This document shows, piece by piece, positions 3,171 through 11,729 of a stretch of 64,000 nt of DNA. Each line of letters opens with the position of its first letter. Positions within the stretch are counted from its first letter, which is position 1. This DNA comes from Shigella phage Sf14. The position numbers and the translations under genes are program-made. Where the stretch lies: the sequence record MF327003; one strand, written 5' to 3'. The notes below the pieces were generated by a model that was given only the letters and a program-made list of their open reading frames with translations, was not told where the DNA came from and searched no databases.

Positions 3171-3842
3171 TTACATCAATTCACTAAGCATGGCTTGCAA
3201 TGAAGTTTTAGAAGTCTGGAAGAAGTGTGTGAACCCATTATGACGTTCTCTTACCTGAATCATTATCTGGTCACCCTTAATCGGGTGTGAACTAATATGG
3301 TATTCATTCATGTTCAGTACAACACCCAAACCATCTATAATGTGTCTGAGTATGTCATATTCAACAAATTCTTCTTTACCTGTGACCTTGATACAAACAC
3401 CTTTGTTGGTTCTCTTAGGGTTTATATCTTCCATAACCAGCATTTGTTGTCCACCAAGAGAAATCATAGAGAACTCTTTACGGTTCTGCTGCTTAACATA
3501 CATCTCAAGTTTCTTCAAAGTATCTTCATAGAACGGATAAGACTTCTTGACAAAGACACCTTCAAGTGGCTCTTTACCTGAATCTTCTCGTTCCATCTTA
3601 AGTCGATTAACAAGTAAGTCTAAAGACCACTTCTCACTTTCGTCAAGATGTGTGTTGATATCATCTAGGCTAAGTACCAGATACTTTCTTTCAAGTTCAA
3701 ACTTTTTCATCTCTATCAAATCCTTAAAGCATTTCTTAGTAATTGCTTCCCATTCTTCGGAGTTCTTTCTCTTCCTCTTCAGATGGGGAACCATATCTGT
3801 CAAGTTCTTCCAACTCTTCTTCAGTAGGTGTCCCATAATCAC
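3171..3842 (-). CDS. hypothetical protein (223 aa)
   Basis: ORF track; last gene of leftward block. Confidence 0.6.
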   Translation of the reverse strand: MIMGHLLKKSWKNLTDMVPHLKRKRKNSEEWEAITKKCFKDLIEMKKFELERKYLVLSLDDINTHLDESEKWSLDLLVNRLKMEREDSGKEPLEGVFVKKSYPFYEDTLKKLEMYVKQQNRKEFSMISLGGQQMLVMEDINPKRTNKGVCIKVTGKEEFVEYDILRHIIDGLGVVLNMNEYHISSHPIKGDQIMIQVRERHNGFTHFFQTSKTSLQAMLSELM

Positions 3843-4273
3843 ATCTTAAGTTTGAAAGTGTTTTTACCATTGACCTGAATATATCCATCATTTTCAACTA
3901 TCCAGTGTGCGGTTGAGAATGCACTATATGCGTTTGCTTCACCATAACCAAGAAACTTACCATCACACACACTTTCAATATGTATTGTGCCTACTGGTTC
4001 ACCTGTATCCACGGTTTCTACAATATAGAGTGTGTTTAGCTTTATGGAACTAACTTTAGTCTCTTCTTTGAAGCATTCAGATAGGGACATATCAAGCCCT
4101 TCAGTTATTACAAATTGCATGTATGCTTCTGAGCACTCCCAGATAAAGCTATGAAGAAGAACCTTTGCAGCATGTCTTGAACAACCAAACTCTGCAACGA
4201 TATCTTTGTACATATCATCTTTAGTTCCGTTGTTAAGCAAAGCTTTACGCACTATCTCTTTAACATTCTTCAT
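3839..4273 (-). CDS. hypothetical protein
   Basis: ORF track; start trimmed to ATG at 4273 (MKNVKEIV) giving 14-nt overlap with upstream gene. Confidence 0.5.
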   Translation of the reverse strand: MKNVKEIVRKALLNNGTKDDMYKDIVAEFGCSRHAAKVLLHSFIWECSEAYMQFVITEGLDMSLSECFKEETKVSSIKLNTLYIVETVDTGEPVGTIHIESVCDGKFLGYGEANAYSAFSTAHWIVENDGYIQVNGKNTFKLKM

Positions 4274-4571
4274 CTTTCCAATCCTCATCTTTCCAATACT
4301 TATCTCTCTCAATCTGAAACTCATCAGGTAACTCTGCAATAGCTTTCAAGTAATAAGCTTCTTGAATGCTGCAAAGGTCTTCATAACCACCATTCATAAG
4401 CCAGTTGTAACCAGCAGGTACACCGTTATCATCACAGAACCCTGTGTAGAACATCGCTTTATGAATCATGTTAAGTGGCTTGTAAGCAACTTCAACGATA
4501 TAGAAAGTATTATCTTTCCAACCACCCTTTGGAGGGTGGATACCTTTAACGCCTCTGGATTGTGGAGTCAC
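4260..4571 (-). CDS. hypothetical protein (103 aa)
   Basis: ORF track. Confidence 0.5.
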   Translation of the reverse strand: MTPQSRGVKGIHPPKGGWKDNTFYIVEVAYKPLNMIHKAMFYTGFCDDNGVPAGYNWLMNGGYEDLCSIQEAYYLKAIAELPDEFQIERDKYWKDEDWKDEEC

Positions 4572-5023
4572 AGCTTTTCCTCAATAAGTGCTTTAACTGT
4601 CTCTACAGATAATTTACCAGACTTGATGTGTGGAATCAACAAAGCAATTGCTTTATCTACATCTTCAGAAACCTTTACAGCTTCTTTTAAGAAGGAATCC
4701 ATCAGATACTTGTAAGTGCTTGAGGCTCTTTCAAGGTAAACTCTGTTATAGTATTCCTCAGAGAGAACTTCTAAATCAAAATCATTATGTGAGCTATGAT
4801 GTTTACCACGAAACAGATACTCACCATTGAATGTTAAGCGTTCTCCAGATTGAAATGTCATATCCTCATCACAGCAGGTTTTTACAAAGGAGTTGTCAAT
4901 CCTTACAGCGATAGGGTATGCTGCTGAAGTGTATATCTCAGTGACTTCACCTTTTGCCATCACGGTCTTTGTGGCATAATCAACAACGACAACTTTCTGA
5001 CCTTCTTTCAATTTTAAACTCAT
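4568..5023 (-). CDS. hypothetical protein (151 aa)
   Basis: ORF track; 4-nt overlap with next gene. Confidence 0.6.
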   Translation of the reverse strand: MSLKLKEGQKVVVVDYATKTVMAKGEVTEIYTSAAYPIAVRIDNSFVKTCCDEDMTFQSGERLTFNGEYLFRGKHHSSHNDFDLEVLSEEYYNRVYLERASSTYKYLMDSFLKEAVKVSEDVDKAIALLIPHIKSGKLSVETVKALIEEKL

Positions 5024-5065
5024 TTTCGCTACCTCTAAACAGGGGCTTTCACACCCCTTGACAGA

Positions 5066-5275
5066 TTACTCTTCAACAGATTCTTTATCTTTCTTTGAAG
5101 AAGACTTTTTCTCTTTCTTCTTAGGCTCAGTTGCTGCAATAGCAATGTCAACAAGCTGTGCTAAGTCAGATTTAATCACTGTTACTGGTTGTTCATTGTA
5201 GAAACCTTTCTCAAGGTACTCTTTGAACTCTTCCAGAGTGTTAAAGCCAAAAGGCTTGACAGGTGTTCTAATCAT
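5066..5275 (-). CDS. hypothetical small protein with lysine-rich C-terminal tail
   Basis: ORF track. Confidence 0.45.
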   Translation of the reverse strand: MIRTPVKPFGFNTLEEFKEYLEKGFYNEQPVTVIKSDLAQLVDIAIAATEPKKKEKKSSSKKDKESVEE

Positions 5276-5345
5276 TTACCCTCCGAGATATCTTTTAAGA
5301 TTTTCTGGTTAATCATTTCCGCAATAGCATAGCGGATACAAACTA

Positions 5346-10134: not shown

Positions 10135-10503
10135 TTGTGCAGAGTCTTTAAGTTTTGCATTCAGCATCGAGAAGGGTTTCACTCTTGCAAGCCATTCACA
10201 ATAAACTGTATCAACATCCTTCCCATTGATGATTGCATACTGCAAGTCCATGAAGAAGTCAGCAGTCCTCATCTGAGCACCAACTGAATATAAAAGTTCT
10301 TCACTAAATGGAACTGTGTAGTCTGGTGTGTAATTGAAGTCAGTAACTTCTGGAATATCAGACTCAGGCCACGGTGAGCTATATGTCAGAGGCAGAACAG
10401 CCTCCTGATACTTTCTGAAGTCGTATCTTTTGCCAGCTTTAACATTCGCTACAAAATCCTTAACGAACTCTTTAAAATCTGGATATGTCTTTGCTTTAAT
10501 CAT
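9385..10503 (-). CDS. protein with N-terminal domain plus three tandem Ig-like domains
   Basis: three ~86-aa repeats each with YQWKK..SGATSATY..G.Y.CVVTN motif. Confidence 0.7.
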   Translation of the reverse strand: MIKAKTYPDFKEFVKDFVANVKAGKRYDFRKYQEAVLPLTYSSPWPESDIPEVTDFNYTPDYTVPFSEELLYSVGAQMRTADFFMDLQYAIINGKDVDTVYCEWLARVKPFSMLNAKLKDSAQPPVITTQPTGGAVNEGSAINLSIVATNATSYQWKKGSSDISGATSATYTKAGAVPADAGSYTCVVTNDVGSTTSDAAVITINPLPVITTQPTSKAVNESSTLTLSVVATGATSYQWKKNGTNISGATSATYSKANAKTTDAGSYTCVVTNAVGSVTSNAATVTINPLPVITVQPQDQDLTVGQTLTISITATGATGYQWRKGNSNISGATSATYTKASVTTADDGNYDCVVTNAVGSVTSHQAKVQVTA

Positions 10504-10868
10504 TTCTTAGCCTCTAATCTTGCGTTTAGTCTAAAATAACCTTTGTGCTGCGGTGAAACATCACCTACAACAACTCCGTCAATCTTATAGCCTTTACCCA
10601 TCACATATTGAATATCCATCAAGAATGTACCAAGACCAACAATATGAAACATCGGGTAAAGAAGTTCTTCAGTATCTGGTAGAGGAATTTTAGGTGTGTA
10701 TTCGAAATATGTTTCGGTAGGGTTGATATCCTTCTCAGGCCATTTGCTATCACGCCATGTTAAGGGTGTCGGAAGTACATCATCAAGATTATACCTGTCA
10801 CCTTCTTGAACACTTTGGACATAAGATTGTAGGAAGCAATAAAAGTCTTTTCCACTCTTTGCCTTCAT
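10500..10868 (-). CDS. paralog of the N-terminal domain of the Ig-like protein, without Ig repeats
   Basis: shared motifs (DFY/DFK..F..V..GxRY, EELLY, FxMDxQY) with residues 1-120 of adjacent gene. Confidence 0.6.
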   Translation of the reverse strand: MKAKSGKDFYCFLQSYVQSVQEGDRYNLDDVLPTPLTWRDSKWPEKDINPTETYFEYTPKIPLPDTEELLYPMFHIVGLGTFLMDIQYVMGKGYKIDGVVVGDVSPQHKGYFRLNARLEAKK

Positions 10869-10882
10869 TATCTATCCTTAAC

Positions 10883-10904
10883 AAATAAAAGGGGCTTTCG
10901 CCCC
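10883..10904 (-). terminator. intrinsic terminator (GGGGC-TTTC-GCCCC)
   Basis: GC hairpin with A-rich run on plus strand immediately left. Confidence 0.55.
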
Positions 10905-10911
10905 ATAAAAC

Positions 10912-11502
10912 TTAAGCCATAGTCTTAAGCATGTTTTTAAGTTTTTTGAGATTCATTGTCTCATCCAACTTAAATCCAAATCCATTGACGTACTCAATGA
11001 AATCAGATTTCTTACTCAGAGATAACGCATAGTTCATGTCGAAGTCATTACTTGGAGTGGACTCTGGAGAGGTGTTCACATCGAAAGAAATCTCTGTGGA
11101 AGTCTCTTCAGACTCTCTGAGGTTATCAATCACAACGCATGTGTAGTTTGCTGGAGAGAACGATGTTGAACCAGCTACATAACTGTATTTAGCGTTGTGG
11201 ATAAGATTTGAGAATACTTTGAAGAATGTTTCTGAATCATGACATACCAGTTTAAATTCACTATTAGTGCCTAGAGCCATGAGTGAATATGGGCTTTCAC
11301 CATTAATATTATAATCTGGGTTCATTGCCTGAACAGTAACACGCATCAAGTTATTTGCAATTGTTTTCTGTTTAAATGAATTAGGTACGTAGTGCATACC
11401 TCTTTCACATTGATTAACCAACTCTTTAAGAAGGTCATCAGAGTATGGTGAAGTGATTGATACAGACCCGTCACCATTATAATTAAAACTCACGTTTAAC
11501 AT
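10912..11502 (-). CDS. hypothetical protein (196 aa)
   Basis: ORF track. Confidence 0.6.
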   Translation of the reverse strand: MLNVSFNYNGDGSVSITSPYSDDLLKELVNQCERGMHYVPNSFKQKTIANNLMRVTVQAMNPDYNINGESPYSLMALGTNSEFKLVCHDSETFFKVFSNLIHNAKYSYVAGSTSFSPANYTCVVIDNLRESEETSTEISFDVNTSPESTPSNDFDMNYALSLSKKSDFIEYVNGFGFKLDETMNLKKLKNMLKTMA

Positions 11503-11729
11503 TTATCAGTTCTCCTACGATTGATAATCTTGCTGCAATAGAGAAATGAAGCAAATTCACTGGAAGAAACCATTAGAACCTGTTCACTAGATTGAGCTAT
11601 TGCTCTGAAATACATACCAGTTAGTGCATCATAGTGCTTATTCTTTCCAATTGAAGTGATATACCCATGACTCTTTGCAGTTTGGTATAAATCAATAATA
11701 TCTGTGATTTCTAGTTGGGAGCTACACAT
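11496..11729 (-). CDS. hypothetical protein (77 aa), first gene of leftward block
   Basis: ORF track. Confidence 0.5.
   Translation of the reverse strand: MCSSQLEITDIIDLYQTAKSHGYITSIGKNKHYDALTGMYFRAIAQSSEQVLMVSSSEFASFLYCSKIINRRRTDKC

Follow-up and report, generated by a model that had tools for sequence, protein, structure and literature searches.

In T4-type phages, transcription units can be separated by PeSL promoter-terminator cassettes (PMC2839356, PMC4122927), with stem-loops whose termination in reporter assays roughly equaled that of rrnB T1 (PMC2839356). Closer to the phage considered here, Felix O1 has published terminators t38, t35 and t29 (PMC3185647); the capsid protein gp20 of Sf14 has been characterized by cryo-EM structure and virion mass spectrometry (PMC11821841), and phage Bas63 has Hex-Dec (PMC12609058). 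We analyzed a 64,000-nt stretch of Shigella phage Sf14 DNA (record MF327003; "the window"), which is 97.7% identical to Sf16 at the nucleotide level. The region under study is ordinary, already sequenced and known: it is the leftward block of transcription conserved among Felix O1-like phages, syntenic with Felix O1 ORF24-40, and comprises Sf14 gp5-gp23 plus one gene apparently unannotated in Sf14. We consider it probable (roughly 0.65) that host sigma70 RNA polymerase reads this block as four successive units delimited by terminators, that translation is coupled within each unit, and that the block encodes mostly mid-infection proteins of unknown function and has a plastic distal end.

Positions 3171-11872 are filled by an unbroken series of minus-strand ORFs, each of which translates cleanly. 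With start codons picked by RBS and by match to independently annotated relatives, these resolve into 20 tightly packed leftward genes (Table 1). A preliminary description had recognized the block correctly but counted about 18 genes, missing the 53-aa g0 and the 30-aa g13b. The former, annotated in Felix O1, Mijalis and HY02 (77-100% amino-acid identity in relatives), appears to be unannotated in Sf14, its exact-match protein entry carrying no Sf14 accession; the latter encodes a peptide (MQPKILVVCIRYAIAEMINQKILKD...) that is kept in 9/9 genomes although the nucleotides differ, and is annotated in Mordin, KPS64, Mijalis and mistaenkt. In comparisons with Mijalis, mistaenkt and Felix O1, purifying selection acts on every one of the 17 genes that have orthologs there (dN/dS 0.02-0.31, with g15, g16 and g13b left out of the set), for instance g0 (0.11-0.31), g6 (0.11-0.21), g8 (0.07-0.25) and g1 (0.02-0.08; 91% amino-acid identity to Felix O1). 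Overlaps, first noted at many junctions and put at 4-14 nt, occur at 11 of the 19 and span 4-19 nt (ATGA four times, GTGA once, the rest 7, 8, 8, 14, 19 and 19 nt), and gaps at four further junctions are no longer than 8 nt. Identical overlaps are found in the annotations of Mordin, Felix O1 and Mijalis. The portrayal of these genes as small, tightly coupled and mostly without known function also held, with a virion report for gp20 alone.

Table 1. Genes and predicted control elements of the leftward block of Sf14
Feature	Position	Strand	Sf14 product; Felix O1 counterpart	Description
Divergent control region	11873..12119	.		between g0 and the rightward DUF5681 gene
P_L (predicted)	11917..11945	-		leftward sigma70-like promoter TTGACT-17-TACCAT; consensus scan 9/12
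g0	11711..11872	-	ORF40	53 aa, basic; RBS AAGGAG
g1	11496..11729	-	gp23 (interpolation); ORF39	77 aa; phrog_5064, unknown function
g2	10912..11502	-	gp22 (interpolation); ORF38	196 aa; phrog_4034
Terminator after g2	10891..10904	-	t38	GGGGCGAAAGCCCC + T run; dG -11.2; PMC3185647 Table 2
g3	10500..10868	-	gp21 (interpolation); ORF37	122 aa; stand-alone paralog of g4 capsid-binding domain
g4	9385..10503	-	gp20	372 aa; Hoc-like 'Hex-Dec' capsid decoration protein; 372/372 identical to PDB 9c2d chain S
g5	8912..9376	-	gp19 (interpolation); ORF35	154 aa; GH24 endolysin; Pfam Phage_lysozyme 1.8e-38
Cassette before g6	8882..8934	-	t35	predicted promoter TTGACG-17-TAGATT (8934-8906), hairpin (8905-8882; dG -15.7), then g6 RBS and start
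g6	8463..8861	-	gp18; ORF34	132 aa; phrog_4266
g7	8102..8470	-	gp17; ORF33	122 aa, acidic; phrog_4348
g8	7807..8100	-	gp16; ORF32	97 aa, acidic; phrog_4385
g9	7470..7814	-	gp15; ORF31	114 aa; phrog_4040
g10	6875..7468	-	gp14; ORF30	197 aa; kept as far as distant Hafnia ounavirus
Cassette before g11	6825..6878	-	t29	predicted promoter TTGACA-18-TATGAT (6878-6849), hairpin (6848-6825; dG -16.0), then g11 RBS and start
g11	6064..6804	-	gp13; ORF29 (only 37% identical)	246 aa; variable slot
g12	5849..6067	-	gp12; ORF28	72 aa, basic, pI 10.1; phrog_4459
g13	5346..5852	-	gp11; ORF27	168 aa; membrane protein (hydropathy)
g13b	5272..5364	-	gp10	30-aa micro-ORF; overlaps g13 by 19 nt, g14 by 4 nt
g14	5066..5275	-	gp9; ORF26	69 aa, Lys-rich tail; phrog_4457
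Hairpin without T run	5041..5058	-		conserved, GC; dG -10.6
g15	4568..5023	-	gp8 (exact match)	151 aa, accessory; among 10 loci only Mordin (75%) has it
g16	4260..4571	-	gp7	103 aa, GTG start; phrog_9967
g17	3839..4273	-	gp6; ORF25 (48%)	144 aa; phrog_4713
g18	3171..3836	-	gp5 (exact match); ORF24	221 aa
Terminal intrinsic terminator	3145..3162	-		dG -12.2; convergent with + strand terminator 1613-1630

Overlapping junctions are common in phage operons, and the block had initially been taken for a single co-translated operon. Three strong, conserved intrinsic terminators and two internal promoters, all predicted, contradict this, dividing it into units A (g0-g2), B (g3-g5), C (g6-g10) and D (g11-g18). 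The terminators lie in gaps of 43, 50 and 70 nt and a fourth ends the block; all four T-run hairpins (dG -11 to -16) are intergenic and on the coding strand. Felix O1 keeps the three internal ones, and the stem equivalent to t38 is kept with compensatory variation in HY02. At two of these sites a sigma70-like promoter directly abuts the terminator, the hairpin beginning at the base after the -10, an arrangement much like that of PeSL cassettes. The window contains 37 TTGACn-N16-18-TAnnnT sites; a hairpin with a dG of -15 or stronger comes next at only three, two of them the cassettes of this block. The promoter before g11 is the best sigma70-like match of the region (11/12); across nine genomes its hexamers are conserved and its spacer is variable, and the cassette is kept whichever of g11 and g12 comes next. 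At the promoter before g6, the -10 is retained as TAnnTT in all relatives, and conservation of the -35 is less telling because it lies within the endolysin coding sequence. A transcript from this promoter could still include the core hairpin. As sigma70-like matches in the region are no more frequent than in shuffled sequence (28 versus 31 expected), the three sites, P_L included, are singled out by conservation and position alone; of the four units, three would be served by such a predicted host-type promoter.

Might the hairpins, rather than terminating effectively, serve to process or stabilize a single long polycistronic mRNA, leaving a functionally single operon with segmental stability? 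5' stem-loops are known to stabilize mRNA, and every hairpin here lies immediately 5' of an RBS and start codon. The conserved hairpin after g14 has no T run; unit B, with no recognizable promoter, must be fed by upstream transcription, and the Felix O1 authors left the choice between read-through and secondary promoters open. However, three hairpins combine canonical T runs (4-6 or more) with GC stems of 5-10 bp, two are preceded by conserved -35/-10 hexamers, and comparable PeSL stem-loops did terminate in reporters (PMC2839356), making this account very improbable.

In the four-unit arrangement, unit A would begin at P_L, whose hexamers and spacer are identical in 9/9 aligned genomes, and stop at the short terminator after g2. 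The surrounding control region is nearly invariant among Moogle-, Felixouna- and Suspvirus genomes, with 88% nucleotide identity to Felix O1 versus 52-82% for most coding sequence, and contains palindromes (CTTAAAAGGCTTTTAAG and AGATATC-N6-GATATCT) and two TTGTCAA boxes (TTGACA on the + strand). The preliminary description had placed the driver of the block in a divergent region at 11730-12119; a conserved promoter-like element does lie there, but only 11873-12119 is non-coding, the remainder belonging to g0. Within unit A, g2 has a globular N-terminal domain and, after an acidic linker, a conserved C-terminal motif of ~45 aa that is helix-extended-helix-like and for which we infer a resemblance to HeH. 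PDB and Pfam gave no match to g2, and an exhaustive HMM search returned 13 matches only among 1.84 billion representatives; the five inspected (182-207 aa) share its layout.

Unit B carries late functions. The decoration protein g4 joins a capsid-binding domain to three Ig-like domains (Pfam Ig_3 6.6e-31), and published virion lists include, from this block, only gp20 (Sf14; PMC11821841) and gp36 (Felix O1; PMC3185647). Its neighbor g3 has no Ig domains, is 38% identical to g4 residues 2-119, matches PDB 9c2d_S residues 3-119 (E 1.5e-13) and evolves under constraint (dN/dS 0.08-0.16). At the sites corresponding to gp20 R79 and R107, 9/9 g3 orthologs have G and Q/H/N; judged by these alignments, gp21 is a gp20 paralog that comprises the capsid-binding domain alone and has neither of the anchoring arginines. 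The third product, g5, matches the PDB 7m5i endolysin (1.9e-86) and has an E15-x8-D24-x5-T30 motif. Since one unit thus encodes a capsid decoration protein and an endolysin, alongside a g3 whose ortholog is late in Felix O1, and since terminators split the block, it is not a single early operon. We found no sigma70-like site upstream of g3, and transcription of unit B would most likely depend on polymerase reading past the weakest terminator, or else on an unrecognized late signal.

Another reading is a late accessory module, in which the genes without known function would be co-regulated with gp20 and the endolysin and would assist head decoration, assembly or lysis without entering the virion; chaperones, lysis regulators and holin-like membrane proteins are the helper types proposed. 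These genes lie on either side of gp20 and the endolysin, in a fixed synteny that extends to a distant Hafnia ounavirus, the capsid-binding domain of gp20 has a paralog in g3, and ORF30, 36 and 37 appear at 60 min in Felix O1. The Felix O1 lysin has no adjacent holin gene, and g13, labeled a membrane protein by the Felix O1, KPS64 and Mijalis annotations, is predicted to have TM segments at 83-101 and 121-139 and carries a charged C-terminus. Yet g13 is far bigger than typical class II holins, no homology to assembly or lysis families was found, units C and D have sigma70-like promoters of their own, a strong terminator lies between them and unit B, and most orthologs appear at 25 min, not 60 min. 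We regard a late module as quite unlikely.

Timing also bears on the proposal that these genes are early. Felix O1 RT-PCR placed ORF24, 25, 26, 28, 29, 32, 33, 34, 35 and 38 in a 25-min class, ORF30, 36 and 37 in a 60-min class and, from this block, only ORF31 (g9) in the 5-min class, which takes in the neighboring rightward ORF20-22 cluster (PMC3185647 Table 3; ortholog timing and expression also in Supplementary Table 1). The assay was end-point and noisy, assigning the major capsid gene to 5 min and spreading a single predicted unit over different classes (ORF30, 60 min; ORF31, 5 min), but what little timing data it provides (10/14 orthologs at 25 min, 3/14 at 60 min, 1/14 at 5 min) argues against "early". 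A single early operon, co-translated from the divergent region and encoding host-takeover and anti-defense proteins, would account for small ORFans with overlapping junctions, a predicted host-type promoter in that region, the 5-min peak of g9, the scarcity of virion reports beyond gp20, and a distal g15-g18 segment that is accessory or faster evolving; the N-terminal domain of gp5 also occurs in a T5-like small ORF near phosphatase, thioredoxin and spanin genes. It would not account for the conserved terminators and internal promoters, the virion protein and endolysin inside the block, the 25- and 60-min orthologs, or the wide conservation of most genes, which are core and keep their order across about 250 (>250) Ounavirinae genomes instead of varying. 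Nor do PHROGs, Pfam or NCBIfam link any block gene to an annotated anti-defense or host-shutoff family, and we think such an operon unlikely.

Searches of Pfam, PHROGs, NCBIfam and PDB and an exhaustive HMM search assigned no function to 16 genes, and 16 of the 20 products are lineage-restricted proteins without virion report. Outside the endolysin and the Ig-like pair, where the preliminary description had likewise recognized no motif, PHROGs, Pfam and NCBIfam yielded no other family. In unit C, the start of g9 at 7814 agrees with the 345-nt genes of relatives, and g10, matched in 254 phage records, gave empty Foldseek and PDB searches (AF2 pLDDT 57.8) and a weak, sub-threshold match to DUF5092. 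One relative labels g7 a D-Ala-D-Ala carboxypeptidase, for which Pfam and NCBIfam give no support.

Comparison of genomes indicates that the promoter-distal end is plastic, with gains and losses directly downstream of hairpins, as for g11, g15 and g16; such plasticity is to be expected of accessory genes. The g11 slot is empty in HY02, Ro111lw and mistaenkt, and the KPS64 annotation reads "similar to Sf14 gp13". The hairpin after g14, followed by a common RBS context (GGTAGCGAAA-ATG), precedes g15, g16, g17 or an unrelated gene depending on the genome, and by this pattern is a gene gain/loss hotspot. Only Mooglevirus and Mooglevirus-like loci have g16, which is missing in Mijalis, and g17 is fast-evolving (dN/dS 0.27-0.29). 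At the end of the block, the N-terminal helical domain of g18 (gp5) recurs in the T5-like phage ORF mentioned above, which is small and hypothetical and adjoins the phosphatase, thioredoxin and spanin genes. The C-terminal domain is predicted to be Whirly-like, (4 strands + helix) x2, in a single AF2 model (overall pLDDT 70.7) with Foldseek E-values that are not significant, and through it gp5 probably binds single-stranded nucleic acid.

In the four-unit reading, units C and D each open with a cassette of -35/-10, abutting hairpin, RBS and ATG, in which the hairpin would halt incoming transcripts and the promoter restart transcription. Like the PeSL cassettes of T4-type phages, each may thereby insulate the dosage and timing of its unit. 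The 16 lineage-restricted products would be made mainly in mid-infection, when their orthologs are mainly transcribed. New leads for the family are the candidate capsid-binding-domain-only paralog gp21, the predicted Whirly-like domain of gp5 and the apparent gain/loss hotspots downstream of hairpins.

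The leftward block of small genes reported in the preliminary description is real, but its count of about 18 was too low. Between 11872 and 3171 the minus strand holds 20 ORFs, each with one terminal stop, when start codons are picked by ribosome-binding site (RBS) and by match to independent annotations of relatives; we call them g0 to g18, starting at the divergent end, plus the micro-ORF g13b. Both g0 and g13b had been overlooked. The former is the equivalent of Felix O1 ORF40 and sits within what had been called the divergent region; it is conserved, is under purifying selection and lacks annotation in Mordin, KPS64 and apparently also Sf14, a small new point. 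The latter overlaps both of its neighbours, and its peptide is kept in 9 of 9 genomes despite nucleotide changes; Felix O1 also conserves it, in unannotated form. For the 17 genes with orthologs in three relatives, dN/dS values of 0.02-0.31 argue that these are real genes. The tight packing reported earlier also stands: 11 of the 19 junctions overlap (by 4, 4, 4, 4, 4, 7, 8, 8, 14, 19 and 19 nt), four further junctions are separated by at most 8 nt, and the remaining four gaps (43, 50, 70 and 42 nt) each hold a hairpin.

This block is Sf14 gp5-gp23, equivalent to Felix O1 ORF24-ORF40, and is thus already known and annotated. Its 8.6-kb region is matched by 252 phage records, all from Ounavirinae (Mooglevirus, Felixounavirus and Suspvirus) and led by Shigella phage Sf16 (97.7% identity over 92%); g18 and g15 are letter-for-letter FDI99_gp005 and FDI99_gp008 of Sf14. 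A tblastn comparison of 10 loci, together with their annotations, showed that orthologous genes follow one another in a common order from the divergent region on the tRNA side to a non-coding gap beyond the last gene. In Felix O1, 17 of the 20 genes match ORF24-40 in the same order at 37-91% amino-acid identity, the terminators t38, t35 and t29 and the divergent partner (ORF41, ORF42 and the tRNA array) are shared, and nothing essential differs. In Sf14, gp20 carries a third Ig domain, g11 is longer and divergent, and g15 and g16 are extra accessory genes. Identity to Felix O1 is 73-91% for g0-g5, near the divergent region, 59-68% in the middle and 37-60% at the distal end. The gene g11 is missing from three genomes, yet the cassette upstream of its slot is kept, and g15 and g16 are gained or lost directly after the promoter-less hairpin in the 42-nt gap, the next gene always using the same RBS context. 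Accessory, fast-turnover behaviour is limited to the promoter-distal third of the block. An IMG/VR scan with g10 returned two loci only, and GenBank phage records were used instead. A distant ounavirus, Hafnia phage SarahDanielle (L007, 4455-9727), keeps the layout of a small gene, a g2-like gene, one Ig protein, a lysin, several ORFans and a g10-like gene.

Features of the block and its surroundings in Sf14 (MF327003); promoters, terminators and cassettes are predictions
Feature	Position	Strand	Detail
Small rightward genes	198-1571	+	stem-loop and RBS box upstream
Terminator	1613-1630	+	convergent with 3162-3145
Non-coding gap	1635-3140		~1.5 kb
CTTGTTAG/CTTGTTAA runs	2053-2133, 2376-2423, 2446-2521		
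CTATACAG/CTATAAAG repeats	2137-2245		
Final terminator	3162-3145	-	after last gene
g18 N-terminal helical domain	3462-3719	-	
g18 C-terminal domain (residues, AF2 order)	E121-125, E131-136, E146-150, E155-159, H160-167, E171-174, E179-185, E190-197, E203-209, H210-220		E, strand; H, helix
Hairpin without T run	5058-5041	-	in 42-nt gap
g13b	5272-5364	-	30 aa
Terminator, t29 equivalent	6848-6825	-	dG -16.0, canonical intrinsic
Promoter TTGACA-18-TATGAT	6878-6849	-	11/12 score
PeSL-like cassette	6878-6825	-	
Terminator, t35 equivalent	8905-8882	-	dG -15.7, canonical intrinsic
Promoter TTGACG-17-TAGATT	8934-8906	-	weaker site
PeSL-like cassette	8934-8882	-	
Terminator, t38 equivalent	10904-10891	-	dG -11.2, canonical intrinsic
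g0	11711-11872	-	53 aa; AAGGAG RBS
True non-coding divergent region	11873-12119		
Promoter-like TTGACT-17-TACCAT	in 11873-12119	leftward	invariant
Two TTGACA boxes	in 11873-12119	rightward	
Several perfect palindromes	in 11873-12119		
DUF5681 protein	12120-12491		
vWA/DUF2828/DUF7788 protein	12570-13985	+	471 aa
tRNA array	14151-18762		25 tRNA genes

Of all DNA in the locus the non-coding divergent region is the most conserved, being 88% identical to Felix O1 as against 52-82% for most coding sequence, and is nearly invariant across three genera. A CTWWWWAG motif (CTTAAAAG/CTTTTAAG) is concentrated there, in the non-coding gap (0-3 kb) and in a strand-switch region at ~52 kb, a distribution that suggests one common DNA-binding regulator. 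In g0 and g1, dS relative to Felix O1 and mistaenkt is 0.44-0.65, well under that of the other genes (mostly >0.8), which hints at an extra DNA or RNA constraint or else at recent recombination.

The overlapping junctions had been read as the mark of a single operon driven from this divergent region. That inference is wrong as judged from sequence predictions, which place three hairpin-plus-T-run terminators inside the block, two of them adjoined by sigma70-like promoters, and would divide it into units A (g0-g2), B (g3-g5), C (g6-g10) and D (g11-g18). The terminators correspond to the published t38, t35 and t29 of Felix O1 (PMC3185647 Table 2) and are kept in sequence, at the same junctions, in Felix O1 and in 9 of 9 aligned genomes. 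The Felix O1 authors left open whether read-through or secondary promoters carry transcription past them, and their paper does not report the promoters adjoining t35 and t29 (PMC3185647); the conserved promoters beside two of the three terminators may supply a modest new answer. The promoter before t29 keeps its hexamers among genomes while its spacer varies, and the one before t35 is weaker, as its -35 lies within coding sequence. A search upstream of g3 found no sigma70-like site, so unit B would have to be reached by read-through past the weakest terminator or be served by some signal that went unrecognised. Sigma70-like matches inside genes (8609-8580 and 8445-8417 among them) were set aside as chance, since sigma70-like matches overall are no more frequent than the shuffled expectation. 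Rfam detected no RNA family in window 1-14200 (E up to 0.1).

At both block promoters the terminator hairpin starts at the base directly after the -10. The 64-kb window contains 37 TTGACn-N16-18-TAnnnT sites; a hairpin with a dG of -15 or stronger follows just three of them, the two block sites included. Both composites have the layout that defines PeSLs (PMC2839356), namely an intergenic sigma70-like promoter, a stem-loop at the -10, a Shine-Dalgarno sequence (SD) and a start codon; PeSLs are composite promoter-terminator cassettes of T4-type phages (PMC2839356, PMC4122927). The resemblance extends to the GC-rich stem-loop overlapping or adjoining the -10 and followed by SD and start, to the ORFans that the cassette flanks, and to gene presence or absence directly beside it (the g11 slot). 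There are differences: the block has two cassettes, whereas T4-type hyperplastic regions have dozens; its stem-loops carry full T runs and keep orthologous positions, whereas the T4-type ones are repeated and interchangeable; and the lineage here is Ounavirinae, with cassettes predicted from sequence. The two block cassettes differ from each other in sequence; g11 comes and goes right after one of them, and g15 and g16 vary after the promoter-less hairpin. At the promoter before t29, a start 7-8 nt past the -10 would land in the 5' arm of the hairpin, so that the site's own transcripts would lack the terminator and incoming transcripts would be stopped; at the promoter before t35, the core stem could still enter its own transcript. 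Two putative PeSL-like cassettes in an ounavirus are a small new point.

The block had also been proposed to hold early or host-takeover genes. The only expression data on this gene set are Felix O1 RT-PCR measurements, in which each ORF tested among 24-38 was transcribed (PMC3185647). Ten of the 14 orthologs tested peaked at 25 min (ORF24, 25, 26, 28, 29, 32, 33, 34, 35 and 38), three at 60 min (ORF30, 36 and 37) and ORF31 alone at 5 min (PMC3185647 Table 3). Both the decoration protein and its paralog belong to the 60-min class, in keeping with a late unit B. The assay is coarse, placing capsid and other structural genes in the 5-min class (PMC3185647), and at this low resolution it argues against 'early' without settling it. 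On the available evidence the early host-takeover reading of the block is not supported; for unit B it is refuted, and for units A, C and D it is a candidate reading. A literature search found no ounavirus transcriptome or anti-defence study, and the Sf14 physiology paper measured gp34 only.

Across the non-coding gap, Felix O1 ORF20-22 do fall in the 5-min RT-PCR class (PMC3185647), and the small rightward genes of Sf14 on that side therefore look more like early-gene candidates than the block does. At least three of these four genes are preceded by a stem-loop without a T run (GGGGAGGGAGACTTCCCC) and a conserved RBS box (CCTAAACTGGAGA), and two also have a visible promoter-like site, e.g. 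TTGCAA-17-TAAAGT; by its sequence this arrangement is a series of putative PeSL-like cassettes. The gap itself, bounded by convergent terminators, has no ORF longer than 46 aa and is dense with short repeats that recur in a 10-11 bp phase; Rfam found no match in it. Mordin, HY02 and Felix O1 (at 12305-13928) have an equivalent gap, on which the Felix O1 paper is silent (PMC3185647). The gap looks like an iteron array, a candidate origin or binding platform.

On the other side, beyond the divergent region, a DUF5681 protein is followed by the 471-aa vWA protein, which is assigned to a PHROG 'RNA-binding protein' family, carries a Ro/TROVE-like annotation and lies directly upstream of the tRNA array. 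This RNA-binding-annotated protein may be linked to the tRNA array.

Within unit B, the product of g4 is a Hoc-like hexamer decoration protein: it is identical at 372 of 372 residues to PDB 9c2d chain S (Sf14 gp20), matches Pfam Ig_3, Ig_2 and I-set, and has been shown on the capsid by cryo-EM and virion mass spectrometry (PMC11821841). Like T4 Hoc and the Bas63 decoration protein Hex-Dec (PMC12609058), it joins a capsid-binding domain to Ig-like repeats and is bound at hexamer centres. Its tandem neighbour g3 (gp21) is paralogous to the capsid-binding domain of gp20 alone, with 38% identity to g4 and a match to 9c2d_S residues 3-119 (E 1.5e-13); the protein is only 122 aa long, with no Ig domain in Pfam. 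In PHROGs, g3 and g4 match tail and Hoc-like families. Unlike gp20, g3 also lacks Arg79 and Arg107, which anchor gp20 through salt bridges with Asp221 of the capsid (PMC11821841). In their place 9 of 9 g3 orthologs have Gly and Gln/His/Asn, respectively, whereas Arg is invariant in 9 of 9 g4 orthologs. The dN/dS of g3 indicates purifying selection; the protein is not listed among the virion proteins in Sf14 Table 1 (PMC11821841) or in the Felix O1 shotgun proteome (PMC3185647). The Hafnia phage SarahDanielle has one capsid-binding-domain gene at the g3/g4 position, which places the duplication within the subfamily, after that split. This arginine-less capsid-binding-domain paralog is a further small new point. 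The third gene, g5, is by sequence a GH24 endolysin (Pfam PF00959, 1.8e-38; PDB 7m5i, 1.9e-86), in whose sequence the E-x8-D-x5-T catalytic motif can be read as E15, D24 and T30.

Elsewhere the impression of few recognisable motifs was borne out: beyond the Ig pair and the lysozyme, Pfam, PHROGs and NCBIfam return only phage families of unknown function. In the 19 genes other than g13b (g0 by NCBIfam only), PHROGs labels everything except g3/g4 and g5 'unknown function', and Pfam and NCBIfam give nothing above cut-off beyond Ig and lysozyme. Searches of these three libraries, which are general and not dedicated to anti-defence, found no similarity to an annotated anti-defence, anti-restriction or host-shutoff family. 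Sub-threshold matches to DUF5092, RdRP, Peptidase_M15_2 and MAG1210 were taken as noise. When 1.84 billion representatives were searched exhaustively by profile, 13 matched g2, and the five inspected share its layout; the g2 profile has no match in PDB, and a HeH-like resemblance of its C-terminus is an impression without Pfam support. For g10, the homolog search returned 17 close relatives only, and the AF2 model (pLDDT 57.8) was discarded as uninformative, with no Foldseek-PDB match at E <0.2. An ortholog of g7 is labelled 'D-Ala-D-Ala carboxypeptidase', which was rejected for want of a domain to support the label. The two-TM membrane protein g13 was considered as the missing holin, for which the evidence is insufficient.

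In the last gene, g18 (gp5), AF2 models the C-terminal domain as two tandem repeats of four strands and a helix (pLDDT 80-90), and the Foldseek matches to the Whirly family have E-values of 0.05-0.17, short of significance; the domain is predicted to be Whirly-like, another small new point. The proteins of the Whirly/MRP1-MRP2/SsgB/Pur-alpha group are single-stranded nucleic-acid binders, and SsgB acts in cell division. They differ from g18 in sequence, with 7-11% identity and no Pfam or PDB sequence match, and g18 has an additional N-terminal helical domain compared with the Whirly family. Alignment profiles of g18 and g10 found no match among PDB sequences. The N-terminal domain has ~35% identity to a 122-aa ORF of T5-like phages, which in Salmonella phage Stitch (L011, 2998-3366) lies amid genes for a NinI-like phosphatase, a thioredoxin, a spanin and a phosphoesterase; a further match to the domain comes from a Vibrio phage.

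We give about one chance in four to a joint reading of the block. Under it, units C and D (g6-g18) would encode middle-phase non-structural effectors directed at host defences or at the nucleic-acid metabolism of host or phage, with gp5 as a Whirly-fold ssDNA/RNA binder; gp21, having lost capsid anchoring, would regulate or chaperone decoration by gp20; and PeSL-like cassettes would insulate ORFan modules and help to exchange them in Ounavirinae. To our knowledge, such cassettes have so far been described in T4-type phages only.

Taken as it is, the block is of little importance: its genes are on record as hypothetical proteins in over 250 Felix O1-like genomes, and published work already covers their transcription in Felix O1, the terminators, the endolysin and the decoration protein. 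The main value of this analysis is corrective, in that the block does not form a single early operon, and it leaves three modest, testable leads in the conserved promoters adjoining two terminators, the gp21 paralog without anchoring arginines and the Whirly-like last gene. Felix O1-like phages are used in typing and therapy of Salmonella and Shigella, and roles for the ~16 core unknown genes would therefore be of practical use.
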